Positions 3,854 to 62,260 of a stretch of 64,000 bases of DNA are shown here, piece after piece. The first letter of the stretch is position 1; every line of letters starts with the position of its first letter. This stretch comes from an uncultured Candidatus Saccharibacteria bacterium. GTDB lineage: Bacteria; Patescibacteriota; Minisyncoccia; Phycocordibacterales; Zambryskibacteraceae. The DNA is taken from NCBI GenBank assembly GCA_964348525.1, contig CAYGCY010000001.1:21873-85872 (forward strand). Reading direction: 5' to 3'. A program made the position numbers and the translations under genes. The notes under the pieces were generated by a model. That model did no database searches, was not told where the DNA came from, and saw only the letters and a program-made list of their open reading frames with translations.

Positions 3854-3924
3854 TGCCAGTTCGTCTAATGGTAGGACGACCGCCTCTGGAGCGGTTAATT
3901 GGGGTTCGAGTCCCTGACTGGCAG
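3854..3924 (+). tRNA. tRNA-Gln (anticodon CUG)
   Basis: 7-bp acceptor TGCCAGT/ACTGGCA with U1:A72 (characteristic of tRNA-Gln), U8, D-stem GTCT/GGAC, anticodon stem ACCGC/GCGGT, loop CTCTGGA (CTG), T-loop TTCGAGT, discriminator G; no encoded CCA. Confidence 0.75.
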
Positions 3925-4105
3925 CAAATGGGCAAAGCCGATTTTCTGCTAGTCAGCAAAGCAATTTATTGCTTTGCGTAGGGTACTCGAAAGGCGCAGG
4001 TGTATTTTTGTTTTGCAAGGCAAAGGCAAAAATACCGAGCAGGGGTCGCGAAAAATTTCCGTCAGGAAATTTATTTGTGACCGAGTCCCTGACTGGCAGC
4101 AAATG
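3907..4105 (+). repeat. 24-bp direct repeat of the tRNA-Gln 3' end (CGAGTCCCTGACTGGCAGCAAATG at 3907-3930 and 4082-4105) bracketing a 151-bp hairpin-rich insert
   Basis: exact 24-nt duplication read in sequence; att-site-like arrangement. Confidence 0.6.
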
Positions 4106-10246: not shown

Positions 10247-10308
10247 AAACCAGAAATGCCTCGTCACGGAGAGATAAACCTCGCTCCTAAACGAGGCATT
10301 TCTGGTTT
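10247..10308 (+). repeat. Hairpin element copy A (conserved loop CACGGAGAGATAAACCTCGCTCCTAA; 18-bp perfect stem)
   Basis: stem AAACCAGAAATGCCTCGT / ACGAGGCATTTCTGGTTT read directly; loop matches family consensus. Confidence 0.8.
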
Positions 10309-10325
10309 ATATTTATATTAAGACG

Positions 10326-10390
10326 AAAACTGAACTAGCCTGTCCGCGGAGCGCGGTATATCTCTCCAAAGGACAGGCTAGTTCAGTTTT
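10326..10390 (-). repeat. Hairpin element copy A' (opposite orientation; 20-bp perfect stem; loop GCGGAGCGCGGTATATCTCTCCAAA is the reverse complement of the core)
   Basis: stem AAAACTGAACTAGCCTGTCC / GGACAGGCTAGTTCAGTTTT; immediately downstream of rnj in transcript orientation. Confidence 0.8.
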
Positions 10391-14454: not shown

Positions 14455-14520
14455 AAAAACAAAGTCCCACAGCTCGTCATGGAAAGATATACCTTGCCTC
14501 CAAATGAACTACAAGACTTT
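14455..14520 (+). repeat. Probable degenerate copy of the hairpin element (core TCATGGAAAGATATACCTTGCCTCCAAATG, ~22/29 matches; weak stem)
   Basis: similarity to family core read by eye. Confidence 0.3.
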
Positions 14521-14574: not shown

Positions 14575-14603
14575 TTGACAGATATAGCATAGTATGCTAT
14601 CAT
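14575..14603 (+). promoter_or_regulatory. Sigma70-like promoter (TTGACA-17-TATCAT) with an internal palindrome ATAGCATAgtATGCTAT in the spacer, upstream of the GC-rich island gene
   Basis: hexamers and spacing read directly. Confidence 0.5.
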
Positions 14604-14679
14604 ATTAACAGCAGTACCGTGGGCATTCCGGCCCACACACATCACAGTTTTACGCCCTAGGGGGCGGAGGACAACAGCC

Positions 14680-15609
14680 ATGCCGTTCATCCAGAGTGTT
14701 GAGAATGTCGCGAAGGTGGAGAAGGCTTTCCTCGCCGTGTGCGAGGAGCTCTCCAAGGTGGTCGAGGAGTGCCGGACGATTCCGGACTTCCGCATCCACC
14801 GGCTCGTCGAGGTGCTTCTCTTGGTCGTTGGGCGCGCCTGCGCCTGGATCGAGAAGGAGCCCCTGAAGTCGAACCCCAAGCGCCTCGAGTACCTCGGTAT
14901 CGAGGTGACGCGCGCGAAGGATCGCCTCGTCGGCGCTCGCATCAACTTCCTGAGGAATCGGGATGAGACGCGGGAGCGGGTTGTGCATGAGATGAAGGCG
15001 ATGAAGCATTTCGCCTCGCTTCTCAATGCTCACCTCGCGGAAGCCGAGCAGGTCATCCTGTTCGACATTCCGGAGCTTGCGCCGTGCGCGGTGCAAGTCT
15101 CTCACGACATCGAGCTCAAGCTCGAGCGTGGGCAGAAGGTCACCGTGAACGAGGTGGTTGAAGCCTCGCAAAACGCCTCGACCCAGCTCAATGTCCTTCG
15201 GGACGCGGAGCGCTCGTTCTACGAGGACGAGGCTGTCCTCAACGACCTGCGGATGCGCATCAATGCGCTCCGTCGTGACGAGACGGTCTTCCGTCGCGTC
15301 GGGAACGGTCTCTTCCACCGCGCTGGCTTCCTTGCGAAGCTCGCAAAGCCGGGTAGCGGGGAGTCGCTCGCGCTTCTCCGCAAGACCTTCATCGTCCTTC
15401 TCAACCAGCTGGTTGAGGTGGAAGAGGAGGTTGCGGCGAAGGAAGCTTCCGCGCGTGTCGCGGAAGTGCTCACGCCCCCGCCCTCGAAGCGCCGGAAGCC
15501 CCGTCGCTACGTCGCGAAGGGCGAGAAGCGCACCGAGCCCAAGGAGAAGAAGGGCAAGAAGGAGAAGAAGGGCGAGAAGGGCAAGCGCAGGCTCGCCGTC
15601 GCCGCCTGA
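14680..15609 (+). CDS. Hypothetical alpha-helical protein (309 aa) with Lys-rich C-terminal tail, encoded in a ~60% GC island; ORFan
   Basis: GGAGGA SD 7 nt upstream of ATG, single long ORF spanning the whole GC-rich segment, intrinsic terminator 20 nt downstream; C-terminus KEKKGKKEKKGEKGKRR. Confidence 0.6.
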   Translation: MPFIQSVENVAKVEKAFLAVCEELSKVVEECRTIPDFRIHRLVEVLLLVVGRACAWIEKEPLKSNPKRLEYLGIEVTRAKDRLVGARINFLRNRDETRERVVHEMKAMKHFASLLNAHLAEAEQVILFDIPELAPCAVQVSHDIELKLERGQKVTVNEVVEASQNASTQLNVLRDAERSFYEDEAVLNDLRMRINALRRDETVFRRVGNGLFHRAGFLAKLAKPGSGESLALLRKTFIVLLNQLVEVEEEVAAKEASARVAEVLTPPPSKRRKPRRYVAKGEKRTEPKEKKGKKEKKGEKGKRRLAVAA

Positions 15610-15627
15610 AGCACAAGCTGTGAGACA

Positions 15628-15657
15628 ACGGCCATCCGAAACAGGATGGCCGTTTTC
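15628..15657 (+). terminator. Intrinsic terminator
   Basis: ACGGCCATCC-GAAACAG-GATGGCCGT hairpin followed by TTTT. Confidence 0.75.
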
Positions 15658-15724
15658 TATTGCGCATTGCGCACCTTTTTCAAATAACTATAATGTGCGC
15701 ACCTTATAAGTAGGAGATAACAAT

Positions 15725-27635: not shown

Positions 27636-27697
27636 AAAACAAAAGTACCTTATCACGGAGAGATATACCGCGCTCCTAAATGAGGTATTTTTGTTTT
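27636..27697 (+). repeat. Hairpin element copy B (loop TCACGGAGAGATATACCGCGCTCCTAA)
   Basis: stem AAAACAAAAGTACCTTAT / ATGAGGTATTTTTGTTTT (16/18 paired). Confidence 0.8.
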
Positions 27698-27806
27698 AGA
27701 TAGCATAAAAATGTCCCACTACAGGCAGTAAAACTTGTTTCTAAACGAGATGTTTTGGCCTTGTGTTAAATACAGCTCTAAAGAAGCTAATGATATAATT
27801 ATCCTA

Positions 27807-35133: not shown

Positions 35134-36507
35134 ATGAAACGAAGAATAGTTTTTTTATTATTTGTGTTTGTACTGGCCGGAATCACTCCGGTTGTATCTA
35201 GTGCGCAGACACTTTCTCCTCAAGAGAGAGCCGTTCTTCAGGCGGAATATGACCAAACTCTTAGGGATATAGATGCCCTCCAGAAGACGATAGATGACCT
35301 AAAGAATCAGCAAAAAACAATAAAGGGAGACATCTCGCTTCTAACAGCCCAGATTACTCAAGCAGAAAAAGTTTTGAAGCAGAAAAATCTGACCATAAAA
35401 CAGCTTACAACTGACATAAACACCAAGACACAGAAAATAAATACCCTTACAGCTCGAATAGAGAGAGGCAAGGTGTCTTTGGCAGAGCTTTTAAGGAAAA
35501 CAAATGAAATAGACACATACAGCTTGCCTGAAGCGGTGCTCTCCAACCAAGATGTTTCTGAATTTTTTGGTGACTTAGATACTTTTAGTTCTATCCAAAG
35601 AGATTTGTATGATCTTTTCAATGAAATAAGAGGTGTAAAACAAGAAACAGAAAAAGAAAAACAGGCTCTGGCCCAGAAGAAAGATCAAGAACTGGATGCG
35701 AAGTATGTGATAGAAACTAAAAAAAATGAAGTGGCTGCAAATAAAAAAGAGAAGGACCAGCTTTTAGCTGTAGTAGATAAAAATAAAGCCAGCCAAGACG
35801 CACTTTTGGCAAAAAAACAGGCGAGGGCTGATGCAATAAGGGCAGCCTTGTTTAATTTGCGTGACGCCCAAGGTATTACTTTTGAGAAAGCGCTTCAGTA
35901 TGCGGAAATAGCCTCACAAAAAACTGGAGTGAGAACTGCGATGATACTTGCCATTCTTTCTCAAGAATCTGATTTAGGAAAAAATGTGGGGTCGTGCTAT
36001 GTGAAAGATTTACAAACAGGCAATGGTATAGGGAAAAACACAGGCACTTTCTTTGAACAAGTAATGAAATCTCCAAGAGATACCTCTGTATTTTCTGAAA
36101 TTACAAACATTTTAGGATTGCCGTGGGAGACCACTCCGGTGTCGTGCCCAATAGGCGGGACAGCTTATTACGTTGGAAGAGGATTTGGGGGTGCAATGGG
36201 GCCATCGCAGTTTATTCCCTCCACTTGGGAACTTTTCAAATCACGTATAGCAAAAGCAGTAGGGGTGAGCATAGCAAATCCATGGGAGCCCGAACACGCA
36301 ATAATGGCAACTGCAATTTATTTAGCTGATTTAGGCGCTAACGGAGGAACATATACAAATGAGAGAACCGCGGCTTGCAGGTATTATTCCGGCAAAAATT
36401 GTTATGCAAGCAATGGCAAGGCGAATGTTGGATTAACTTATGGTAATCAGGTAATAAAAAAGGCGGAGACTTTCCAGAGCAATATCGATTTCTTGAAATC
36501 TGTTTAG
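35134..36507 (+). CDS. Secreted coiled-coil protein with C-terminal lysozyme-like/lytic-transglycosylase-like domain (PcsB-like architecture)
   Basis: signal peptide, ~230 aa coiled coil, then ILSQES...GAMGPSQF...AIYLADLG resembling the SLT catalytic E-S / G-L-M-Q / AYNAG pattern. Confidence 0.5.
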   Translation: MKRRIVFLLFVFVLAGITPVVSSAQTLSPQERAVLQAEYDQTLRDIDALQKTIDDLKNQQKTIKGDISLLTAQITQAEKVLKQKNLTIKQLTTDINTKTQKINTLTARIERGKVSLAELLRKTNEIDTYSLPEAVLSNQDVSEFFGDLDTFSSIQRDLYDLFNEIRGVKQETEKEKQALAQKKDQELDAKYVIETKKNEVAANKKEKDQLLAVVDKNKASQDALLAKKQARADAIRAALFNLRDAQGITFEKALQYAEIASQKTGVRTAMILAILSQESDLGKNVGSCYVKDLQTGNGIGKNTGTFFEQVMKSPRDTSVFSEITNILGLPWETTPVSCPIGGTAYYVGRGFGGAMGPSQFIPSTWELFKSRIAKAVGVSIANPWEPEHAIMATAIYLADLGANGGTYTNERTAACRYYSGKNCYASNGKANVGLTYGNQVIKKAETFQSNIDFLKSV

Positions 36508-36534: not shown

Positions 36535-36600
36535 AAAGCAAAGTGCCTCACCACGGAGAGATATACCGCGCTCCTAAACGAAACGCCTTCACTTTTTGCT
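36535..36600 (+). repeat. Hairpin element copy C (loop CACGGAGAGATATACCGCGCTCCTAAAC)
   Basis: imperfect stem AAAGCAAAGTGCCTC / GCCTTCACTTTTTGCT. Confidence 0.7.
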
Positions 36601-36611
36601 AAAAAAGAGTC

Positions 36612-36806: not shown

Positions 36807-36843
36807 AATACCCCCCAATTTGGAGCTAAATTGGGGGGTATTG
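36807..36843. promoter_or_regulatory. 15-bp-arm perfect palindrome (AATACCCCCCAATTT-ggagct-AAATTGGGGGGTATT) abutting the -35 box of the ncRNA promoter
   Basis: read directly; 3' arm ends at the TTGACA hexamer. Confidence 0.6.
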
Positions 36844-36868
36844 ACAAAAATACAAATAGGTGTATACT
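36841..36868 (+). promoter_or_regulatory. Near-consensus sigma70 promoter TTGACA-16-TATACT
   Basis: hexamers read directly. Confidence 0.65.
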
Positions 36869-36874
36869 AGGGAT

Positions 36875-37145
36875 ACCTTACGCTGGTACGAGCCCGAGCG
36901 CGTAGGAGGCCACCGGCCATGTTCCGGAGAGGCATTCAGGGCGACTGCGGGGTGAAGGCGCTGAGTAGTATGAGGGTCGCCTCCGCTCACGCGTTGGATG
37001 GTGCCGTGCGCTCGAAGTTAGCGCATTGGCAGGCGCAGGTCTCTCGGTGGCCAGAGTAATGGTACACGGGCACGAAGAAGTGCCGACAGGGACCCCTTCG
37101 GGGAACCTTAAAGGGCCCGGACGATTCTGTCCGGGCCCTTACTGC
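36875..37145 (+). ncRNA. GC-rich (~60%) structured non-coding RNA of unknown class, ~270 nt, upstream of rpmE
   Basis: no ORF of 60 aa or more in any frame; long-range complementarity (GGCCACCG 36908-36915 with CGGTGGCC 37046-37053), local hairpins including a CCCC-UUCG-GGGG tetraloop hairpin and terminal stem AGGGCCCGG/CCGGGCCCT. Confidence 0.55.
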
Positions 37146-38481: not shown

Positions 38482-38551
38482 AAAATGAGTCGGATATTTT
38501 TCTTTTGGAGAGATATACCGCACTCCGCAGAAAAACACCCCACTCATTTTA
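38482..38551 (+). repeat. Hairpin element copy D, variant loop (TTGGAGAGATATACCGCACTCCGCAGAAAAA)
   Basis: stem AAAATGAGT / ACTCATTTT; core GGAGAGATATACCGC-CTCC conserved. Confidence 0.7.
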
Positions 38552-39962: not shown

Positions 39963-40391
39963 ATGATAGCGGTCTACATTTTCTATGGTTCACTTATTGG
40001 TATGCTCGGCATGCTAACTGTGAAAATGTATGAAGCAAAAAGAAGACGAAGAAGTTTGGTGTACAGAATATTCGTTAATTTTGACGAGATAACTCATGGA
40101 ATGCTTGCAAAAATTATGGGTAATTTGCGAGCAAAAAAAGATAGGTTCGAGGATTTTATGAAAGTAGATTTCAAAAAACTTCTCTATCTTTTGGCTGTGA
40201 AAGCTATTGCTCATATAAGGGAGTCTTATGATAAGATTCGTGAATCCTCAAGAGGGGTGCAGAAATTGAAAGAAAATCCCAAGGTGTCAGCCTTTTTGAG
40301 AGACATAGAGGAAGCAAAAAAAGAAATTAGCAAGAAAAACGAAGAAGAAAAAGCAGAGGAGTCGTTTTTGAGAGACAAATTGCCGGAGTAG
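39963..40391 (+). CDS. Hypothetical protein, N-terminal TM, K/E-rich; stop overlaps tRNA-Thr 5' end
   Basis: ORF only. Confidence 0.35.
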   Translation: MIAVYIFYGSLIGMLGMLTVKMYEAKRRRRSLVYRIFVNFDEITHGMLAKIMGNLRAKKDRFEDFMKVDFKKLLYLLAVKAIAHIRESYDKIRESSRGVQKLKENPKVSAFLRDIEEAKKEISKKNEEEKAEESFLRDKLPE

Positions 40392-40454
40392 CTCAGTTGG
40401 TAGAGCAATACTTTTGTAAAGTATGGGTCGCAGGTTCAAATCCTGTCTCCGGCT
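40382..40454 (+). tRNA. tRNA-Thr (anticodon UGU)
   Basis: acceptor GCCGGAG/CTCCGGC, D-arm GCTC-AGTTGGTA-GAGC, anticodon stem ATACT/AGTAT loop TTTGTAA, T-arm GCAGG-TTCAAAT-CCTGT, discriminator T. Confidence 0.85.
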
Positions 40455-40592
40455 CAAATAAAGTGTTTTATTTGAGTCTGGATTTGAAGGTCGGAGCGAT
40501 GTTTTGCTAGCAAGCAAAACCGCGAGACGGGGTCGCGACCGAGCCGAGTGACGACGAGCCGAGAGTTGTGGCCTAATCCTGTCTCCGGCTCA
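40439..40592 (+). repeat. 18-bp direct repeat of the tRNA-Thr 3' end (AATCCTGTCTCCGGCTCA at 40439-40456 and 40575-40592) bracketing a 118-bp insert homologous to the one downstream of tRNA-Gln
   Basis: exact duplication; both inserts share TTTTGCTAG(C/T)(A)AGCAAA and GGGGTCGCGA blocks. Confidence 0.6.
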
Positions 40593-40638
40593 CTTATTGG
40601 TTTTAGCCCGCGTTCTTTGGTAGTCTGTACTCCTCTTT

Positions 40639-43080: not shown

Positions 43081-44226
43081 ATGAATTCGTATAAAATATC
43101 GAGACAAGAAGAAGACGTACTCAAGAAAAATCTTGAAGAGAGACACGATGCGGAGGCTCTAAGAATAAGGCGCTATTTGGCAATGAAGGATCTTTCAAGA
43201 ACAGATGGAAGCCCTATAAACACTATAGTTAAGAGAGTTTTAGACCGTGAGGAATTTAGCGAATTTGACCTTATAGAAACGCCTGAAATAGTTCCTGCGG
43301 ATATAAGCTTCGATCTTTTTGATTTTCCAGACAACCACCCTGCACGAAGCAAGTCTGATACTTATTACGTAGATGATAAAAATATTTTGCGTACCCACAC
43401 TACTGTGATGTGGTATTACTATCTAAAGCAGGACTCTGTAAAGGAAAGAATGGCGAGAGGAGAGCCGGTGGGATGTTTTTCTCATGGAAAAGTGTATCGC
43501 AAGGACGAAATAGATAGACACCACATGAATGTCTTTCATCAGCTTGATGGATGGTATTTAGCGCCGAAGGATAAAGAAATAATAGGGCAAGAAGAGTTAC
43601 AGGCAGTCTTGATGTCTATTGCAAAGGCGGTATTCGGAGAAACAGTAGAGGGGAAATTTAATCCCGACACATTTCCTTATACCGATCCGTCCCTCGAGAT
43701 GGAAATTAAAAAAAATGACAAATGGATAGAAGTGCTCGGTAGCGGAGTGGTGAAAGGAAGTGTGCTTGAAAAGTTTGGGGTAGATTCTTCGAAATGGAAT
43801 GGTTGGGCTTTCGGTTTTGGTCTTGAGAGGTTGGCGATAGTTAGTATGGAGCTCCCAGACATACGACTTTTATGGTCAGAAGATGAGCGTGTTAAGAAAC
43901 AATTAATTTTGGGAAATAAATATAAAGAAGTTAGTAAATTTCCACCAGTTATTAGAGATATTTCATTTATTGTGGAGAAAAACTTTGTGTTAAATAATTA
44001 TTTTGACGCTATAAGAGATATAGGAGGTGATGAGGTAGAGGAGGTCCATTTGCTTGATAAATACGAAAACGAAGAAAAATTCGGAGCTGACAAAATTAGC
44101 TATACCTTCAGAATCACATACAGAGACATGGACAAGACTCTTACCAACGAAGAGGTAAATGCCATTCATTCTAAAATCGAAGCTATGACTGAACAGGATT
44201 ATGGGGCTAAGTTAAGACTTGTATGA
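43081..44226 (+). CDS. pheS: Single-chain (mitochondrial-type) phenylalanine--tRNA ligase: PheS-like class II catalytic core fused to a C-terminal FDX-ACB anticodon-binding domain
   Basis: class II motifs (FSHGKVYRKDEIDRHHMNVFHQLDG; GWAFGFGLERLAIV) followed by FPPVIRDISFIVEK...LDKYENEEKFGADKISYTFRITYRDMDKTLTNEEVNAIHSKIEAM typical of the FDX-ACB domain normally at the PheT C-terminus. Confidence 0.7.
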   Translation: MNSYKISRQEEDVLKKNLEERHDAEALRIRRYLAMKDLSRTDGSPINTIVKRVLDREEFSEFDLIETPEIVPADISFDLFDFPDNHPARSKSDTYYVDDKNILRTHTTVMWYYYLKQDSVKERMARGEPVGCFSHGKVYRKDEIDRHHMNVFHQLDGWYLAPKDKEIIGQEELQAVLMSIAKAVFGETVEGKFNPDTFPYTDPSLEMEIKKNDKWIEVLGSGVVKGSVLEKFGVDSSKWNGWAFGFGLERLAIVSMELPDIRLLWSEDERVKKQLILGNKYKEVSKFPPVIRDISFIVEKNFVLNNYFDAIRDIGGDEVEEVHLLDKYENEEKFGADKISYTFRITYRDMDKTLTNEEVNAIHSKIEAMTEQDYGAKLRLV

Positions 44227-44807
44227 GTTGGATTTGGAGGGTTGGGTTATCCCAAAATGAAACATCAGAAGAGTTGTTAAACAAATCTGGGCTTAAATAT
44301 GAGCAGGTTGAAGTAGAGGATGCGTTAAAAAAACATATTCCCGAAACGATTGGTAAGCCATATAAATTGCAAACCTCAATGAGGCTTGACGCCCCCAATT
44401 TTTTTAGTTGCTCATCTCTCGCCAGCTACTTGTATGTTTTTGCTGGGGTTTATATGCCAAGTTTGGTAATAGAGAAATTTAATTTTACTAAACCAATCAC
44501 TAAAGAAGAATTAAGATTCGGAGACTTTGTGTATTCATTCAATGATGCCGATGAAGATAGAAAATCACCAAACCATATGGGTATATACATGGGCGATGGA
44601 AATATTCTTCAAGCCTCAGGATATTGGTATAAAGGGCAGGTCTTAATTGAAAATATGAGCGAAAGCCCGTCCTTCAAAAATCTGATTGGATTCGGGAGAG
44701 TGGTTGACGACTTAAAAGAGAAAAGATACGTGGTCGAGATTCCAGATGACCGCGAGGATTTACGAGAGAAGGAAAATTTAATAAAGTATTTAAATTCTAA
44801 AATATGA
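44223..44807 (+). CDS. NlpC/P60 (C40) family cysteine peptidase
   Basis: Cys in FFSCSSLASYLY and His in SPNHMGIYMGDGNILQASG. Confidence 0.65.
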   Translation: MSWIWRVGLSQNETSEELLNKSGLKYEQVEVEDALKKHIPETIGKPYKLQTSMRLDAPNFFSCSSLASYLYVFAGVYMPSLVIEKFNFTKPITKEELRFGDFVYSFNDADEDRKSPNHMGIYMGDGNILQASGYWYKGQVLIENMSESPSFKNLIGFGRVVDDLKEKRYVVEIPDDREDLREKENLIKYLNSKI

Positions 44808-45370
44808 AATTAGACATTCCGTATTATTCACAATTTGACGGGATAACCATGCTTGAATGGAAAGAAAAAGGCTGTGCCCCCACCTGCCTTAAAATGTGTA
44901 TGGATTTTTATTTGGAGAAAAATAAAAAAACTGCTCCAACTATTGATGATTTAATAAAAGAAGGAGAAACAATAGGAGCGTACTTGGAAAATGTTGGGTG
45001 GAAACATGATGGATTAGTAAGAGTCGCACATAACCACGGTGTGCCAGCTTATGCCGAAGAGTTTCGTTCCGTTGAAGTAGATGTTTTAAATAAAACATTT
45101 TCTGATAATCCGCTACAAGGAGACTTGATAGATATTGGCATTCAGAGAATAAGAAATTCGCTAGACAAGGGGACTCCGGTTATTGTATCCATTCAAAACC
45201 ATGTAGGCTCTCACCAAGTAGTGGTTACTGGGTATGAAGATAATTTAGGGTCTACTACAGGGTTTTATATAAGCGACCCAGATAATAGAAATAGTGAAAA
45301 AAAGGGTGTTTTTATGCCAATGACTGACTTTTTGGCAATTTGGCGTAAATTTGCCATTTTTGTGGGTTAG
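44804..45370 (+). CDS. Peptidase C39-like (papain-fold) domain protein, translationally coupled to the NlpC/P60 gene
   Basis: YYSQ...GCAPTCLKM Cys region and downstream SHQVVVTGY His region as in Peptidase_C39_2. Confidence 0.5.
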   Translation: MKLDIPYYSQFDGITMLEWKEKGCAPTCLKMCMDFYLEKNKKTAPTIDDLIKEGETIGAYLENVGWKHDGLVRVAHNHGVPAYAEEFRSVEVDVLNKTFSDNPLQGDLIDIGIQRIRNSLDKGTPVIVSIQNHVGSHQVVVTGYEDNLGSTTGFYISDPDNRNSEKKGVFMPMTDFLAIWRKFAIFVG

Positions 45371-45437
45371 TAGAGCCGTATTTTGTACACAAAAAAGCTT
45401 TATTTTACCCTCCTTATTTGATAGAATACTATAGTAA

Positions 45438-47510
45438 ATGGTATCCAAGAAAGAAGACAAAAAAGAGCCTAAAAATGGCTCTTATAGCGCCGCCGATATT
45501 ACCGTTCTAGAGGGCCTAGAGCCCGTTAGAAAGCGTCCAGGTATGTATATTGGTACAACAGGCCCTGACGGCCTCCACCACCTTATTTGGGAGATTTTTG
45601 ACAATGGAAGAGACGAGGCGATGGGAGGGTTTGCTGATGAAATCGAGGTCGCTCTTTTGCCAGGAAATTTGGTGAGAATAACAGACAATGGGAGAGGTAT
45701 TCCGGTAGACATGCACAAGCAAACAAAAGTTTCTGCACTAGAAACTATCATGACCACTCTTCATGCCGGAGGAAAATTTGGGGGAGAAGGGTACAAAGTA
45801 TCAGGTGGTCTGCATGGAGTAGGGGCTTCTGTTGTAAACGCACTCTCTGATTATATGTCCGTTGTGGTACACAGAGATGGCGGTAAATATTTTCAAGAGT
45901 ATTCAAAGGGTAAGAAAAAAGCAGCTGTAAAAAAATTGGGAGCATCAAAACTCCACGGTACTGTAGTTACTTTTTCTGCTGATCCGGAAATATTTCAGGA
46001 AATCAATTTTGAGTTCAATAGAATAGTTCAACACCTGCGTCAGCAAGCCTACTTAGTGAAAAGTTTGAGAATAACCGCAATAGATGCGAGAGGGTGGGAT
46101 GGAAAAATCAGAGCAGAAGAAGTATTTAATATTCGAGAGCTTGATCTCGATGTTCCTTCTATGAGTTTTTATTTTGAAGGCGGGCTACACTCTCTTGTAA
46201 GATTTCAAAACTCATTTCAAAAACCTATTCACAAAAATATTTTTTACATAGAAAAAAAGATGAATGAGTATGAGTCTGTAGAGGTGGCGCTTCAATATGT
46301 AGACGATATATCTTCACGTATTCTTCCTTTCGCAAACAATATCTATAACGGTGAAGGAGGCACTCATGTGACCGGCTTCAAAACTGCGCTCACTAGGACG
46401 CTTAATTCATATTCAAAAAAAGGGAATGGGGAAAAGGCAGATGATTCGTTTACAGGAGACGATGTTTTAGAGGGTCTCACGGCGGTTATTTCTGTGAAGC
46501 TTCGTGAAGTGCAATTTGAGGGCCAAACTAAAGCCAAACTGGGCACTGTGGAAGCGAGAGCCATGGTGGAAAGCGCCTTTGGAGACGCGTTCGGCATGTT
46601 TTTAGAAGAACACCCAGACGATGCAAGAGCTATCATAAATAAAGTGCTTCTGGCAATGCGTGCTAGAAAAGCCGCTAAAGCAGCCAAAGACTCTGTACTC
46701 CGCAAAGGCGCATTTGAAGGCATGACTCTCCCTGGGAAATTAGCAGACTGCCAAACTTCATCTGCAGAGGACTCCGAATTATTTATTGTGGAAGGAGATT
46801 CTGCAGGCGGTACAGCAAAAATGGGGCGAAACAGAGAGTATCAAGCGATACTTCCTCTTCGTGGAAAAATTTTAAACATTGAAAGAGCGAGACTCGACAG
46901 AATGCTTGGGTCAGAACAAATCAGAAATTTGGTAGTGGCACTTGGCACTGCAATAGGTGACACATTTGATATAGGGAAACTCCGCTACCACAAAATAATA
47001 ATCGCAACAGATGCGGATGTGGACGGTGCACACATTCGAACTCTCTTGCTCACGCTTCTTTATAGATTCTTTAGACCGCTTATAGATAGTGGCTATATTT
47101 ACATAGCACAACCACCTCTATATAAAATAAAGATAGGCAAAGATATTCATTATGTTTACACAGAGCCAGAGATGGAGATTTTTAAAAAGAAAAATGGTTT
47201 AGATAACGTGAGGATTGAAGAGAGTTTGGAAACTGAAGATACTTCTAGTGAAGAATCAGCAGAAGAAGCAAATGAAAAAACAAAAAAAACGCCAAAGGCT
47301 TCCGTCCAGCGATATAAAGGTTTAGGTGAAATGAATGCTGATGAGCTATGGGAGACAACAATGGATCCGCAAAGGAGAATTCTAAAAATGGTTACCATCC
47401 AAGACGCCCAAGAGGCAGACAAAGTATTTGATATTTTGATGGGTACAGATGTTCCAGCCAGAAAATCTTTCATTCAATCCAATGCAAAACTAGCTAGACT
47501 GGATATCTAA
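45438..47510 (+). CDS. gyrB: DNA gyrase subunit B (type IIA topoisomerase B subunit)
   Basis: GHKL ATPase, EGDSAGG, Toprim ATDADVDGAHIRTLLLT motifs. Confidence 0.9.
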   Translation: MVSKKEDKKEPKNGSYSAADITVLEGLEPVRKRPGMYIGTTGPDGLHHLIWEIFDNGRDEAMGGFADEIEVALLPGNLVRITDNGRGIPVDMHKQTKVSALETIMTTLHAGGKFGGEGYKVSGGLHGVGASVVNALSDYMSVVVHRDGGKYFQEYSKGKKKAAVKKLGASKLHGTVVTFSADPEIFQEINFEFNRIVQHLRQQAYLVKSLRITAIDARGWDGKIRAEEVFNIRELDLDVPSMSFYFEGGLHSLVRFQNSFQKPIHKNIFYIEKKMNEYESVEVALQYVDDISSRILPFANNIYNGEGGTHVTGFKTALTRTLNSYSKKGNGEKADDSFTGDDVLEGLTAVISVKLREVQFEGQTKAKLGTVEARAMVESAFGDAFGMFLEEHPDDARAIINKVLLAMRARKAAKAAKDSVLRKGAFEGMTLPGKLADCQTSSAEDSELFIVEGDSAGGTAKMGRNREYQAILPLRGKILNIERARLDRMLGSEQIRNLVVALGTAIGDTFDIGKLRYHKIIIATDADVDGAHIRTLLLTLLYRFFRPLIDSGYIYIAQPPLYKIKIGKDIHYVYTEPEMEIFKKKNGLDNVRIEESLETEDTSSEESAEEANEKTKKTPKASVQRYKGLGEMNADELWETTMDPQRRILKMVTIQDAQEADKVFDILMGTDVPARKSFIQSNAKLARLDI

Positions 47511-47573
47511 TTTGATTGGCAAATAAAAGGGAAATCAATTATTCTACCCATAGACCCCTTACAGGAGGTGGAT

Positions 47574-47750
47574 TGTGACGGCACGACCGGTGCATGACGC
47601 CCCCGCACAAGAGGAGAAGCCCCCTGCGGTACAGGAAGTTGTTCTTTGCCCAGAAGGCGAAGACTGTCTGAGGCCTGAGTGTCTCGTGGCAGGTCGATTC
47701 CAATGGTGCAGGCACCCGATACGCACCGGAGCTACGATTCCGGTGTCGTG
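47574..47750 (+). CDS. Cys-rich microprotein, 59 aa (MTARPVHDAPAQEEKPPAVQEVVLCPEGEDCLRPECLVAGRFQWCRHPIRTGATIPVS), ~62% GC; below ORF-track cutoff
   Basis: AGGAGG SD 6 nt before GTG, four Cys, intrinsic terminator immediately after TGA. Confidence 0.4.
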
Positions 47751-47755
47751 ACAAA

Positions 47756-47785
47756 AAGCCGCCACAGATGTGGCGGCTTTTCCAT
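47756..47785 (+). terminator. Intrinsic terminator
   Basis: GCCGCCAC-AGAT-GTGGCGGC then TTTTCCATTTTT. Confidence 0.75.
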
Positions 47786-47811
47786 TTTTGTAAAAAAGCA
47801 ACGTAGCCTAT

Positions 47812-47873
47812 CTAAAGCAAAAGCCTCATTACGGAGAGATAAACCTCGTTCCTAAACGAGGCATTTCTGCTTT
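47812..47873 (+). repeat. Hairpin element copy E (loop TACGGAGAGATAAACCTCGTTCCTAAAC)
   Basis: stem AAGCAAAAGCCTC / GAGGCATTTCTGCTT, imperfect. Confidence 0.7.
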
Positions 47874-47904
47874 GTGTAAATAATAAAAATATATTTTGTT
47901 ACAA

Positions 47905-47941
47905 GGAATAAAAACAAATGGGGAACCCCTAGGGGTTCCCC
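47905..47941 (-). terminator. Intrinsic terminator for minus-strand small gene
   Basis: GGGGAACCCC-TA-GGGGTTCCCC palindrome with T-run on minus strand. Confidence 0.7.
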
Positions 47942-47947
47942 ATACTT

Positions 47948-48178
47948 CTACTGCTGTTCCACAGCTTCGAACATCGAGGCCGGATTGTAGCCAGCAGTTT
48001 CCACCTGCACGTACCAGCCGATTTCCCCGTCTATCCTGAGGGGCTTCACATCTCGCACCATGTGCTGGGAGAGCGAGGTACGACCTTTCCAGCGTACCAA
48101 CTGGCCCTTCGCAAACGGTGCGGTCCCGAGACTGCCGGGAGTGTTGTCGCTTTCCAAAGACGGTTCTCCGACTTGCAT
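47948..48178 (-). CDS. Hypothetical small protein (76 aa), GC-elevated (~55%), possibly an SH3/Tudor-like beta domain
   Basis: AGGAG SD 6 nt before ATG; own terminator; convergent with the Cys-rich microprotein. Confidence 0.5.
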   Translation of the reverse strand: MQVGEPSLESDNTPGSLGTAPFAKGQLVRWKGRTSLSQHMVRDVKPLRIDGEIGWYVQVETAGYNPASMFEAVEQQ

Positions 48179-48241
48179 TCGAATCTCCTGTGCAAAGACG
48201 TGGAGAATTAAGATACCTTAAATAATTGTTTTTGTAAACCG

Positions 48242-49519
48242 CTACTGTTTTGAGGAAATATTTGCTTTTATGAAAGAGATTAAGTTTTCAATATTCATTT
48301 TTTCAGATTTCTCACCATTGCGTGCTTCAAAAGCTAGTTCTTTCGATTCAACCTCTTTGTCCCCGATAACAATATTGTAAAAAGTTTTTTCAGATTTGGC
48401 GTTACGAACCTTCTTGCCCAAGGTTTCATTTGAGCTATCTAATTCAGCTCGTATACCTGCGTCAATAAATTTTTTATAAATTTCCTCTGCAAACTCGTTG
48501 TGTGTTTCGGCAACAGTTAGTATTTTTACTTGGACTGGCGAGAGCCAAAGAGGGAAAGCCCCAGCGTATTTTTCGATGAGGAGCGCCATCGTGCGCTCTA
48601 TTGCTCCAATTGACGAGCGGTGCACCACAAAAGCTCTGTGTTCTTTGCCATCTTCGCCAATGTATTTCAAATCAAATCTTTCTGGCATACAAAAATCGTA
48701 TTGCACGGTAAACGCTGTGTCCTCCTTGCCGTTTGCGTTTTTCATTTGGATATCAATTTTGGGCCCATAGAAAGCGGCTTCATTTTTTGCTTCTTCAAAT
48801 TCTGCACCACGAGACTTCATCAACTTGCGTAGTAAATCTTCCGCTTTCTCCCACGCCTCATCATTTTTATAATATTTTTCTGTGTTTGTTCTGTCGCCGA
48901 GTGACAATCTAAATCTGTAATCCTCGTTTAGTTTCAAGCCGAACACAGATGTGATGTATTCCACTAAATCTAATGCTTTTCCAACCTCCTCCACTGCCTG
49001 TTCCTCGTCTCTACAAATGATATGTGCGTCCGCAAGACAAAATGCGCGCACTCTTTGAAGACCCATTAGTTCTCCTGACTGTTCGTAGCGATAAAGCTTT
49101 GCTAGCTCTGCAATTCTCATTGGCAAGTCTCTGTATGAACGAGGCTCTGATAGATAAAGCTCAAAATGGTGGGGGCATGTCATGGGGCGAAGCATAAACT
49201 CGTCTTCGTCTATCACGATGGGTGCGTACATTGAATCTTTGTAATGCGGATAGTGGCCGGACTTTTTATATAAATCTAGTTTTGCGATGTCTGGAGTAAT
49301 AACGTGGCTGTAACCACGTTTTATTTCTTCATCCACTATAAATCTTTCAAGTTCGCGCCTAATAGTTGCACCCTTTGCTGTAAACAAGGGGAGTCCTTTT
49401 CCTACCGTTTCGGAAAAGGTAAAAAGCCCTAATTCCTTGCCTATTTTTTTGTGGTCCCTTTCATCCATGATTGCAATTCTAACAGAAAATCTTTTGTACC
49501 AAAGTGCCTGCCGCACCAA
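48242..49519 (-). CDS. thrS: Threonine--tRNA ligase, catalytic core plus anticodon-binding domain only (no TGS or N2 editing domains); true start may be ATG at 49468
   Basis: begins at conserved RDHKKIGKELGLF; class II motifs; C-terminal anticodon-binding domain; only 425 aa versus ~640 for canonical ThrRS. Confidence 0.85.
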   Translation of the reverse strand: MVRQALWYKRFSVRIAIMDERDHKKIGKELGLFTFSETVGKGLPLFTAKGATIRRELERFIVDEEIKRGYSHVITPDIAKLDLYKKSGHYPHYKDSMYAPIVIDEDEFMLRPMTCPHHFELYLSEPRSYRDLPMRIAELAKLYRYEQSGELMGLQRVRAFCLADAHIICRDEEQAVEEVGKALDLVEYITSVFGLKLNEDYRFRLSLGDRTNTEKYYKNDEAWEKAEDLLRKLMKSRGAEFEEAKNEAAFYGPKIDIQMKNANGKEDTAFTVQYDFCMPERFDLKYIGEDGKEHRAFVVHRSSIGAIERTMALLIEKYAGAFPLWLSPVQVKILTVAETHNEFAEEIYKKFIDAGIRAELDSSNETLGKKVRNAKSEKTFYNIVIGDKEVESKELAFEARNGEKSEKMNIENLISFIKANISSKQ

Positions 49520-49629: not shown

Positions 49630-49800
49630 ATGAAGCGGAATCGTGAACCAAAACTTGAACGGAGGCTGGCTCACCTCGTTTTCTTCATCGGATTTGTGGT
49701 TGGACTCGTTTGTACTGCTCTCGGAGTTTTGATTGGGGCCCCTGTCGCACTACTGTTCAACAAAAAGATTAAAATGGGAGATGCAGACCTCACAGTGTGA
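49630..49800 (+). CDS. Small membrane protein, 56 aa
   Basis: AAGGAG SD 7 nt before ATG; one TM helix; terminator overlaps stop. Confidence 0.4.
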   Translation: MKRNREPKLERRLAHLVFFIGFVVGLVCTALGVLIGAPVALLFNKKIKMGDADLTV

Positions 49801-54479: not shown

Positions 54480-54544
54480 ACACAGCGGGATATTTTACTC
54501 AGGAGTGCGATTTGTCTCTCCGTGACAAGATATCCCGCTGTGTT
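54478..54544 (-). repeat. Diverged hairpin element copy H, minus orientation (reverse complement of loop is CTTGTCACGGAGAGACAAATCGCACTCCTGAGTAAA)
   Basis: 16-bp perfect stem AAACACAGCGGGATAT / ATATCCCGCTGTGTTT. Confidence 0.6.
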
Positions 54545-61695: not shown

Positions 61696-61757
61696 ATTGG
61701 GAAGGCATTGTCACGGAGAGATATGCCGCGCTCCTAAACAATTCCCTCCCAGTCCTT
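61696..61757 (+). repeat. Hairpin element copy F (loop TCACGGAGAGATATGCCGCGCTCCTAAAC), overlapping the rnr 5' end on the opposite strand
   Basis: stem GGATTGGGAAGGCATTG / CAATTCCCTCCCAGTCC (14/17). Confidence 0.7.
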
Positions 61758-61817
61758 TCCGGTTAAAACTTTAACATATCTTGCAGTAGTTCTTAAATTT
61801 GGTACTATAGCGCGACA

Positions 61818-62116: not shown

Positions 62117-62180
62117 GCAAAATAAGGAGCCTTGTCACGGAGAGATATACCTCGCTCCTAAACAAGGCCCCTTATTTTGC
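62117..62180 (+). repeat. Hairpin element copy G (loop TCACGGAGAGATATACCTCGCTCCTAAA)
   Basis: stem GCAAAATAAGGAGCCTTG / CAAGGCCCCTTATTTTGC (17/18). Confidence 0.8.
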
Positions 62181-62260
62181 TTTTACTGATATAAGGGAGG
62201 GGTATTTCATTGTGCTAAAATGTTCTTGGTAGTTATTTAGTATTTAATTAAACGAAAGAA

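Follow-up and report, generated by a model that had tools for sequence, protein, structure and literature searches.

What occupies the gap between the convergent genes gyrB (45438-47510, plus strand) and thrS (48242-49519, minus strand), and do the two small open reading frames found there form a gene module of foreign origin? The window, i.e. the whole 64,000-nt stretch of DNA that was analysed, has a mean GC content of 40.5% (sd 6.5%). Within the gap, two GC-rich patches (47529-47794 and 47912-48213) both peak at 62.5% GC in 120-nt windows. An earlier note on this DNA had described a ~60% GC patch downstream of gyrB and had called the two genes in it too GC-rich for the genome. This description is borne out by the GC3 values, which are 0.57 for ORF-A and 0.68 for ORF-B, compared to 0.34 for gyrB, 0.40 for thrS, and 0.38 +/- 0.10 for 32 long ORFs of the window. 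The GC content of the two cassettes is ~20 points higher than that of the neighbouring genes. Very likely, both ORFs are genes, and the variable gyrB/thrS gap of this Patescibacteria (Paceibacteria-like) genome contains a small islet of foreign composition. The following features were assigned:

47516-47545, plus strand: promoter-like site of ORF-A (TTGGCA, 18 nt, TATTCT), suggested by a consensus scan
47563-47568, plus strand: Shine-Dalgarno sequence AGGAGG of ORF-A, six bases ahead of the GTG, read from the sequence
47575-47751 including the stop codon, plus strand: ORF-A, GTG start, 58 aa, from the ORF list
47754-47791, plus strand: intrinsic terminator of ORF-A; stem-loop 47754-47781 with a 12-bp stem (7 G-C pairs) and a 4-nt loop, then a T-run
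47791-47869, no strand assigned: 79-nt variable stretch carrying the core of the hairpin element, flanked by CATTTTTG and CATTTCTG; boundaries ambiguous by 2 nt
47809-47876, plus strand: copy of a dispersed hairpin element between both terminators; long covarying stem, conserved apical core 47831-47856 (ACGGAGAGATAAACCTCGTTCCTAAA)
47908-47943, minus strand: intrinsic terminator of ORF-B; 11-bp palindrome ATGGGGAACCCCTAGGGGTTCCCCAT at 47943-47918, then a T-run
47948-48178, minus strand: ORF-B, ATG start, 76 aa; disordered N-terminus followed by a predicted five-stranded SH3/Tudor/KOW-like beta-barrel
48185-48189, minus strand: Shine-Dalgarno sequence AGGAG (CTCCT on the plus strand) of ORF-B, six bases ahead of the ATG, read from the sequence
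48210-48238, minus strand: promoter-like site of ORF-B (TTTACA, 17 nt, TATCTT), overlapping the 3' end of thrS, from a consensus scan

The minus-strand gene was found at the coordinates given in the earlier note, and its 76 codons, its AGGAG Shine-Dalgarno sequence and its palindromic terminator were confirmed. For the plus-strand gene, the AGGAGG sequence, the terminator and the peptide sequence were confirmed, whereas its coordinates have to be shifted from 47574-47750 to 47575-47751 and its length is 58 instead of 59 residues. In comparison with shuffled sequences, five terminator-like sites were observed where 1.3 are expected, and two promoter-like sites where 1.4 are expected; the terminators are clear, and the promoter-like sites are no more than suggestive. 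Similar promoter-like sites precede two ORF-B homologues (TAGACA-17-TATCTT in L023, TTTACA-17-TATTTT in L026), and in the L027 homologue of ORF-A a GGAGG precedes the ATG. Between thrS and ORF-B no terminator was found; read-through from thrS is therefore also possible. As had been anticipated for the microprotein, ORF-A escapes the usual gene calling. The public gene calls of all four sister assemblies covering this position include the 76-aa gene and omit ORF-A. Furthermore, the protein database does not list ORF-A, and a word-indexed protein search gave no match.

The same type of search with ORF-B retrieved only ORF-B itself. An exhaustive search of billions of proteins yielded four homologues of the same length with 36-48% identity; matches to Big_3_5, Kelch and an unnamed repeat (P0003-P0005) in this search were discarded because they represented sums of weak repeat matches. 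For ORF-A, a homologue that is 48% identical across 42 aa (tblastn E 9e-8) was found in L026, and a second one in L027 (E 1e-4). Searches of metagenomes, viral contigs, phages and plasmids added no relatives of either protein. Both proteins are members of very rare families that are absent from current family libraries.

The islet is missing in L007, which of the sampled genomes sharing the gyrB/thrS synteny is the closest one, and in six relatives the gap is filled with different genes. In all lineages, the GC3 values of the ORF-A and ORF-B genes and of an 86-aa gene described below are between 0.51 and 0.71, compared to 0.28-0.40 for gyrB and thrS. It is this atypical composition and the patchy distribution that suggest acquisition. 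A donor did not emerge, as no homologue outside these CPR contexts turned up among proteins, metagenomes, viral contigs, phages and plasmids; the neighbourhood scan detected neither phage nor mobility genes, and no att-like or other flanking repeats were found around the islet. All five members of the ORF-B family reside in AT-rich CPR contexts, and a recent origin from a GC-rich source is therefore conjectural. All neighbours, for ~7 kb in the direction of gyrB and ~11 kb in the direction of thrS, are housekeeping genes (GT2, PEGA, pheS, NlpC/P60, a C39-like peptidase, gyrB, thrS, dnaE, rnhB, nusB-NUDIX, rnc, smc), as deduced from a Pfam scan of ten ORFs in the region 40.6-59 kb; gyrB, thrS and dnaE had already been identified in the ORF list. 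No paralogues of ORF-A, ORF-B or the 86-aa protein occur elsewhere in the 64-kb window. An apparent repeat linking 47734-47767 with 36130-36163 proved to be a chance match within an unrelated gene.

The hairpin-element copy lies between the terminators of the convergent genes, as the earlier note had stated; it is not part of a module with them. An alignment of related strains revealed that the window shares the 79-nt stretch with L002 and L003, and that L001 and L004 lack it. Because these sister strains keep both genes, the hairpin element has to be regarded as a separate, dispersed element outside the gene pair. When seven copies were folded together, compensatory changes were observed in 18 of the 26 stem pairs. 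The element has no match in Rfam, and no transposase was seen.

ORF-A and ORF-B are adjacent in three lineages. In the window lineage and L026 they converge; in L027 their arrangement is divergent, with ORF-A located upstream of ORF-B. The Cys pattern and the pairing, on whose recurrence the earlier note had made its proposal depend, were thus found again in L026 and L027. This recurrence, the foreign composition and the vacant locus of L007 agree with an acquired pair. An obligatory two-gene module is incompatible with the L023/L028 lineage, where ORF-B occurs without ORF-A, and with the separate transcription units, which do not constitute an operon. In L023/L028, the place of ORF-A is taken by an unrelated 86-aa protein with four cysteines, whose gene has a dN/dS of 0.11. 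Homology between ORF-A and this protein is undetectable, and the latter has no significant match in Pfam, NCBIfam, PHROGs or PADLOC. ORF-B is consequently the constant component; the Cys-rich protein encoded beside it is replaceable by the unrelated 86-aa protein.

This interchangeability bears on the strongest competing explanation, namely that ORF-A and ORF-B are unrelated passengers, i.e. independent "moron-like" cassettes that gather in a permissive gap and have no functional link. Separate putative promoters and separate terminators would fit this explanation, as would the occurrence of ORF-B without ORF-A, the unrelated genes filling the gap in other relatives, and the presence of further GC-rich promoter-Shine-Dalgarno-ORF-terminator cassettes in the window (14680-15609 and 36919-37059). 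Against it, ORF-A and ORF-B have remained neighbours in L027 despite their divergent arrangement, and in every lineage seen the gene beside ORF-B codes for a small four-Cys protein. We regard mere cohabitation as somewhat unlikely, although it is a serious competitor.

Two small genes of atypical composition and patchy distribution in a variable hotspot might also be taken for a toxin-antitoxin or anti-phage defence mini-system. Type II toxin-antitoxin systems comprise co-directional, co-transcribed genes and match a toxin or antitoxin family; the genes studied here are convergent or divergent, have their own terminators and match no such family. Both proteins are mildly acidic and neither is hydrophobic. 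PADLOC was empty for ORF-A, and for ORF-B it gave a weak Csm6 match (E 0.023) that was treated as chance; PHROGs, Pfam and NCBIfam gave nothing significant. A toxin-antitoxin or defence function is accordingly very improbable.

Do the ORFs code for proteins at all? The GC-rich patches could represent structured non-coding or dual-function RNAs, the ORFs being by-products of stop-poor, GC-rich sequence. GC-rich transcription units are typical of structural RNAs in AT-rich genomes, several frames are open over the ORF-A patch, and the GC-rich stretch begins just past the -10 element of ORF-A and extends approximately to the terminator. Moreover, the strains differ less from each other within the islet than they do in gyrB and thrS combined (9/606 versus 121/3336 nt, Fisher p = 0.004). 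This low divergence is not general, since L023 and L028 differ more in their islet genes than in gyrB. The substitutions themselves argue against an RNA. For ORF-B, dN/dS values of 0.13-0.18 were determined among three of the homologues, and its three substitutions relative to L001 and four relative to L004 are all synonymous. The amino-acid motifs of ORF-A are kept despite codon change: different codons are used at 10 of the 19 residues that are identical among the homologues, and its frame is the only one that is open in all three lineages. Folding energies were no better than those of shuffled sequences when the terminators were omitted (z-scores -1.4 and -1.1), and Rfam, with gathering as well as E-value thresholds, yielded nothing beyond sRNA matches at chance level that spanned the terminators. 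A non-coding or dual-function RNA as the explanation of the patches is therefore highly improbable. At the sequence level, the pattern of substitutions demonstrates that both ORF-A and ORF-B are protein-coding and under purifying selection.

The cysteines of ORF-A are arranged as C25-x5-C31-x4-C36-x8-C45 and are followed by H47; the spacing C-x6-C-x4-C-x7-C given previously was a miscount. Four cysteines and one histidine are invariant across the three lineages, a comparison that comprises three sequences, one of which is truncated. The motif kept in the homologues is C-x5-8-C-[LM]-[KR]-P-E-C-x8-C-x-H-P, which can also be written as C..C[LM][KR]PEC..G..Q.C.HP. Searches of Pfam, NCBIfam, PHROGs, PADLOC and PDB sequences gave nothing significant. 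The term "zinc-ribbon-like" used in the earlier note does not fit this motif, because it contains no CxxC (CPxC) knuckle. The only Pfam hint was the Nab2-type CCCH finger (PF21803), which with an E-value of 0.14 and 12.4 bits stayed below the gathering cut-off of 20; in addition, ORF-A has a Gly instead of a His at +4 after C36, where C-x5-C-x4-6-C-x3-H is expected. An AlphaFold2 model computed from the single sequence is of low confidence (pLDDT 65), too poor for a structure search, and contains no beta structure. Metal binding is for this reason deduced from the cysteine pattern, and the chances that ORF-A holds a metal ion appear evenly balanced.

A second reading of the cysteines, in which ORF-A is a RiPP- or bacteriocin-type precursor with cysteines modified to thioethers or disulfides and ORF-B an accessory or immunity protein, had been raised in the earlier note and agrees with a small, Cys-rich product that has its own Shine-Dalgarno sequence and terminator and with a sub-threshold VWC match of the L027 homologue (E 0.014), but it is most improbable, given that no radical-SAM, LanB/C/M, YcaO or ABC-exporter-with-maturase gene exists within ~7 kb towards gyrB and ~11 kb towards thrS, that the C39-like peptidase (44804-45370) has no fused transporter and is a housekeeping neighbour conserved beside gyrB, that ORF-A contains neither a signal peptide nor a double-glycine motif and matches no RiPP family in Pfam or NCBIfam, and that its variable N-terminus, the would-be leader, and conserved Cys region are the reverse of most leader/core patterns.

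The prediction that the 76-aa protein is beta-rich is supported by its AlphaFold2 model, which is all-beta with five strands (pLDDT 76.8). As modelled, ORF-B has the five-stranded, strongly bent antiparallel sheet of about 50-60 residues that characterizes SH3-like and Tudor-like small barrels, and its N-terminus carries an invariant LGTAPF motif. H.V..VKP, a W and ET..Y are likewise invariant. The best Foldseek matches were the Mfd RID, CarD/CdnL and UvrD Tudor domains, all of them weak (E >= 0.06); judged from the model, these matches are generic for small beta-barrels. At the sequence level, Pfam gave no match at E <= 1, NCBIfam and PHROGs nothing significant, and the PDB profile search was empty. 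An assignment to KOW (PF00467), the RID of CarD_TRCF (PF02559) or R67 DHFR (PF06442) was rejected, as hhalign probabilities were 0.8-2.6%.

Taken together, the explanation that we prefer is a foreign islet of two independent cassettes coding for rare proteins, with a metal-binding ORF-A and a docking ORF-B; as a whole it has about the same chance of being right as of being wrong. Each of the two promoter/Shine-Dalgarno/ORF/terminator cassettes would give rise to a soluble, mildly acidic small protein. ORF-A would bind one metal ion, probably zinc, via C25, C31, C36 and either C45 or H47. ORF-B would adopt an SH3/Tudor/KOW-like barrel behind the flexible LGTAPF N-terminus and might dock on a large cellular machine, the Cys-rich protein serving as a metal-stabilised partner or modulator. 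The idea of docking arose because the nearest bacterial structural neighbours of the model are RNA-polymerase-binding Tudor-like domains and KOW domains; this part of the mechanism is doubtful. A still bolder version is a long shot: ORF-B might dock on RNA polymerase or the ribosome with an interchangeable metal-stabilised partner (ORF-A or the 86-aa, ankyrin-like protein), which would make a minimal two-protein regulator, and the high GC3 would be held by selection on the transcript instead of being left from a recent transfer.

The composition poses a puzzle of its own, as the small genes have GC3 values of 0.5-0.7 in every lineage and the surrounding genes values of 0.3-0.4. If selection on the transcript did keep GC3 high, GC-rich promoter-ORF-terminator units would represent a distinct class of micro-genes. 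Two bona fide small-protein families can be added to the family libraries, and their source is candidate-phyla-radiation bacteria, whose accessory genes are poorly understood. The locus also illustrates clearly how a variable hotspot can lie between conserved convergent genes. Broader interest would arise if ORF-B docked on RNA polymerase or the ribosome; at present, the result is a modest addition to the catalogue.

Phage "morons", a concept of Hendrix and colleagues, are reportedly autonomous promoter-ORF-terminator cassettes of atypical composition between conserved genes. Each of the two ORFs resembles them in having its own promoter-like site, a strong Shine-Dalgarno sequence, a factor-independent terminator, atypical GC content and a patchy distribution, and in separating two genes that lie side by side in a relative. 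In contrast to morons, these cassettes belong to a bacterial chromosome and not to a prophage; they are bordered by gyrB and thrS, with no phage genes nearby, and no phage or viral homologues were found. As a soluble protein of <70 aa with four conserved Cys and one His, ORF-A is similar to prokaryotic zinc-finger micro-proteins such as the C(P)XCG-type of haloarchaea and the Nab2-type CCCH proteins, and the spacing of its first three Cys is similar to that in CCCH fingers. It differs from the former in lacking paired CxxC/CPxCG knuckles and from CCCH fingers in that its third Cys is not followed by a His at +3. It stays under every family threshold. The modelled fold of ORF-B is reminiscent of the bacterial Tudor-like domains that interact with RNA polymerase (N-terminal domain of CarD/CdnL, Mfd RID, C-terminal domain of UvrD) and of the KOW domains of L24 and NusG/Spt5, to none of which it belongs by sequence, with hhalign probabilities of at most 2%; these families have no LGTAPF motif at the N-terminus, and ORF-B is a free-standing protein of 76 aa. 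Finally, the hairpin element corresponds to REP/MITE-like intergenic hairpins in its length of ~70 nt, its intergenic location, its at least seven copies in 64 kb, its fold and its strain-variable presence. Unlike simple repeat copies, it has conserved the apical 26 nt, whereas the stems differ between copies and covary.

The gap between the convergent genes gyrB and thrS contains two GC-rich patches (47529-47794 and 47912-48213), which are separated by an AT-rich spacer. GC content peaks at 62.5% in each patch, compared to a mean of 40.5% for the window (sd 6.5%, 120-nt windows), which agrees with the GC-rich stretch that the earlier note had seen downstream of gyrB. The following features were located:

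end at 47510, plus strand: gyrB
47516-47545, plus strand: promoter-like hexamers before ORF-A, from a consensus scan
47563-47568, plus strand: Shine-Dalgarno sequence AGGAGG of ORF-A, six bases 5' of the start
47575-47751, plus strand: ORF-A, GTG start, 58 aa, MTARPVHDAPAQEEKPPAVQEVVLCPEGEDCLRPECLVAGRFQWCRHPIRTGATIPVS
47754-47781, plus strand: terminator of ORF-A, a 12-bp stem followed by a T-run, two bases past the stop codon
47809-47876, plus strand: hairpin copy between the ORF-A and ORF-B terminators
47943-47918, minus strand: terminator of ORF-B, a perfect 13+13 palindrome
47948-48178, minus strand: ORF-B, ATG start, 76 aa
48238-48210, minus strand: promoter-like hexamers before ORF-B, from a consensus scan
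48242-49519, minus strand: thrS

ORF-B, with an AGGAG Shine-Dalgarno sequence six bases 5' of its ATG and its own palindromic terminator, is the gene that had been described on the minus strand. The small plus-strand gene is likewise real and has a Shine-Dalgarno sequence and a terminator, but its coordinates had been off by one. Its product does contain four cysteines, but has 58 and not 59 residues, and two of the three spacings had been miscounted; the correct pattern is C-x5-C-x4-C-x8-C. Because the consensus scan performed no better than on shuffled sequence, the hexamers are only suggestive of promoters.

A word-indexed search of 5.8 billion proteins retrieved ORF-B itself alone, on six near-identical contigs. 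When 1.8 billion representatives were searched exhaustively with phmmer, two relatives of 73 and 74 aa were gained (E 7e-12 and 4e-4); three repeat proteins from the same search were discarded as artefacts, their scores being sums of weak repeat matches. A profile search extended the family to five members with 36-48% identity to ORF-B. Invariant are M1, Q2, G15, L17-G-T-A-P-F22, G25, V28, H39, V41, V44-K-P46, W55, E60, Y64, and A67. Comparing the three closest members with each other gives a dN/dS of 0.13-0.18 (dS 0.39-0.51). Within the species, ORF-B differs by three substitutions from the sister strain contig L001 and by four from L004, and every one is synonymous. Judged by this conservation, ORF-B is with high confidence a real gene, and its family is very rare.

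ORF-A was not found in the protein database, and none of the four sister contigs spanning its position has a gene call there. Two contigs of other relatives contain counterparts: an ORF in L026 ending ...VHCPFGSKECLKPECTVFGETQRCMHPIHTGRKLKTS, which is convergent with the ORF-B homologue, and a called 67-aa gene in L027 containing ...CPCDMAGIECMKPECQSLGPFQKCSHP..., which lies upstream of the ORF-B homologue in divergent orientation. They are tied to ORF-A by tblastn with E values of 9e-8 and 1e-4, respectively. Residues V23, C25, P26, C31, P34, E35, C36, G40, Q43, C45, H47, and P48 are kept in the alignment, and the frame of ORF-A is the only one open across all three lineages. Between the window and L026, different codons are used at 10 of the 19 identical residues. 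The Cys spacing and the gene pair, whose absence from every related genome the earlier note had named, together with a missing transcription or translation signal, as refuting its proposal, are both conserved in L026 and L027. With high confidence, ORF-A is also a real gene, one that travels with ORF-B.

In L023, L024, L025, and L028, an ORF-B homologue is again positioned after thrS (the thrS of L023 is 83% identical to that of the window). Just downstream of gyrB, and convergent with this homologue, the position of ORF-A is occupied by a gene for an 86-aa protein:

L023, 2396-2656, minus strand: 86-aa protein gene
L028, 344-601, minus strand: 86-aa protein gene

The protein contains four cysteines (C-x2-C-x12-C-x4-C), and no similarity between it and ORF-A could be detected; its C-terminal half looks like one ankyrin repeat, with designed ankyrin repeat proteins as a weak match by profile (E 0.04). 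A dN/dS of 0.11 indicates purifying selection. The constant member is thus ORF-B, and what varies is the small Cys-rich protein encoded next to it. The proposed two-gene module holds as a recurrent pairing, but not as an obligatory one.

The best relatives of gyrB (67-75% identity) stem from Patescibacteria MAGs, which are labelled Lloydbacteria, Kaiserbacteria, Nomurabacteria, Zambryskiibacteria, Paceibacterota, or 'Saccharibacteria'. Six of them retain the convergent gyrB/thrS order, with gaps of 299 to 2342 nt and a different gene content in each. In L007, the closest genome with this order (gyrB 74%, thrS 70%), the gap of 299 nt has 34% GC; it holds a single small ORF, hydrophobic and unrelated, and neither ORF-A nor ORF-B is traceable in it. 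The gap in the Zambryskiibacteria MAG contig L022 (4976-5464) locally reaches 65% GC in a locus of 45% GC; its sequence is similar to neither ORF-A nor ORF-B. In the thrS-dnaE interval of the window, a mildly GC-rich gene (49630-49800, plus strand, 47% GC) codes for a predicted 56-aa membrane protein; in L002 and L023, gene callers likewise place a product of 56 aa there.

The earlier note had considered both genes compositionally foreign, and GC3 bears this out: ORF-A has a value of 0.57 and ORF-B one of 0.68, compared to 0.38 +/- 0.10 for 32 long ORFs of the window, 0.34 for gyrB and 0.28-0.40 for thrS. The homologues of both genes have values of 0.51-0.71 and the 86-aa gene of 0.66-0.69; in L023 the whole patch has 55-60% GC, compared to 30-40% in the flanks. 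Such foreign-like composition thus characterises the family in every lineage seen. Every known family member sits in an AT-rich CPR context, and searches for a GC-rich donor, phage or plasmid relative found none. The composition may stem from repeated transfer from an unsampled pool or from selection in place. A role of the patches as RNA is very unlikely: Rfam yielded no match at gathering thresholds and only chance-level sRNA matches covering the terminators at permissive ones, and once the terminators are removed, neither transcript folds better than its dinucleotide shuffles (z = -1.4 and -1.1).

Between window positions 43474-49504 and L001, the islet differs at 9 of 606 nt (1.5%), compared to 121 of 3336 for gyrB plus thrS (Fisher p = 0.004). 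The 73 substitutions in gyrB (3.5%) are all synonymous; thrS differs by 3.8%. L023 and L028 display the opposite pattern, and the low divergence of the islet is therefore more likely due to recent recombination or a sweep within the species than to a general constraint at the nucleotide level.

The hairpin noted between the two genes is present, but unrelated to the pair. In an alignment of five strain contigs, a 79-nt stretch bearing its core (47791-47869) is missing from L001 and L004, strains in which both genes are still present with their terminators; the pair can therefore do without the hairpin. It belongs to a dispersed, intergenic family:

10254-10321, 27643-27710, 36541-36608, 47819-47886, 61701-61768, 62125-62192, plus strand: copies, of which 47819-47886 is the one between the two genes
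54490-54532, minus strand: further copy
10343-10373 (minus strand), 14481-14513, 38507-38539: weaker copies

An apical core of about 26 nt, CACGGAGAGATAnACCnCGCTCCTAAA, is nearly invariant across seven window copies, and their long stems vary, with compensatory changes in 18 of 26 pairs. Such a combination is unusual for a simple repeat. The family has no match in Rfam, and searches of related MAG loci and of viral contigs did not find its core.

At least two more GC-rich units of the window have a promoter/Shine-Dalgarno/ORF/terminator layout:

14577-15660: unit between secG and groES with a 309-aa ORF (14680-15609; 63% GC, GC3 0.84), a TTGACA/TATCAT promoter-like site, a GGAGG Shine-Dalgarno sequence and a terminator
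about 36840-37140: unit just upstream of rpmE (peak 68% GC) with a consensus promoter (TTGACA, 17 nt, TATACT; about 36842-36870), an AGGAGG-led 46-aa ORF (36919-37059) not recorded as a called gene, and a strong terminator (about 37108-37140)

The 309-aa protein, which also occurs in L030, ends in a lysine- and glutamate-rich repeat and has no match in Pfam, NCBIfam, PHROGs or PADLOC. The second unit, for which Rfam gave nothing even at E <= 1, is either an unclassified structured RNA or a further GC-rich micro-gene. Moreover, the 3' ends of tRNA-Thr (40382-40455) and tRNA-Gln (3854-3925) are repeated 120-180 nt downstream at 40577-40594 (aatcctgtctccggctca) and 4070-4105 (CGAGTCCCTGACTGGCAGCAAATG), respectively, with GC-rich DNA between the copies or just after. 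These repeats resemble attachment sites left behind by integrated elements. The gyrB/thrS islet is therefore one of several small islets in this genome whose composition looks foreign.

The locus is best explained as two putatively autonomous small-protein cassettes within the variable interval that separates two convergent essential genes, where ORF-A would be a metal-binding mini-protein and ORF-B an SH3/Tudor-like docking module; confidence in this mechanism is low. A toxin-antitoxin or defence pair was rejected, as the genes form no operon and family matches are not significant (PADLOC gave for ORF-B one weak match alone, to Csm6, E 0.023). The suggested RiPP-type precursor was dismissed on account of an unsuitable peptide layout and the lack of a maturase among the neighbours, which include a GT2 glycosyltransferase, a PEGA protein, pheS, NlpC/P60 and a C39-like peptidase on the gyrB side, and the 56-aa membrane protein, dnaE, RNase HII, NusB-NUDIX, RNase III and SMC on the thrS side. 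The Cys spacing of ORF-A fits the definition of neither a zinc ribbon, which had been proposed, nor a CCCH finger. Both proteins are predicted to be soluble and mildly acidic, and neither sequence has a hydrophobic N-terminal stretch. Because four Cys and a His are invariant in ORF-A, presumably a cytoplasmic 6.4-kDa protein, a single metal site would be the most economical reading; its single-sequence model (pLDDT 65) is unreliable.

The model of ORF-B, built from the five-sequence alignment, has a mean pLDDT of 76.8, with the first 12 residues below 50. It lacks regular secondary structure before residue 27, which is followed by a small barrel of five strands. A PDB sequence profile search was empty and profile comparisons with CarD and R67 DHFR were not significant (probability <= 2.6%), so that ORF-B would not be placed in any named family. 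Its predicted fold class, an SH3/Tudor-like barrel, is established. Among the top Foldseek matches, all of them weak (E 0.06-0.5), Tudor-like domains of bacteria that bind RNA polymerase are over-represented, namely the Mfd RID, CarD/CdnL, and the C-terminus of UvrD; docking of ORF-B on RNA polymerase or the ribosome is only a lead from these model comparisons.
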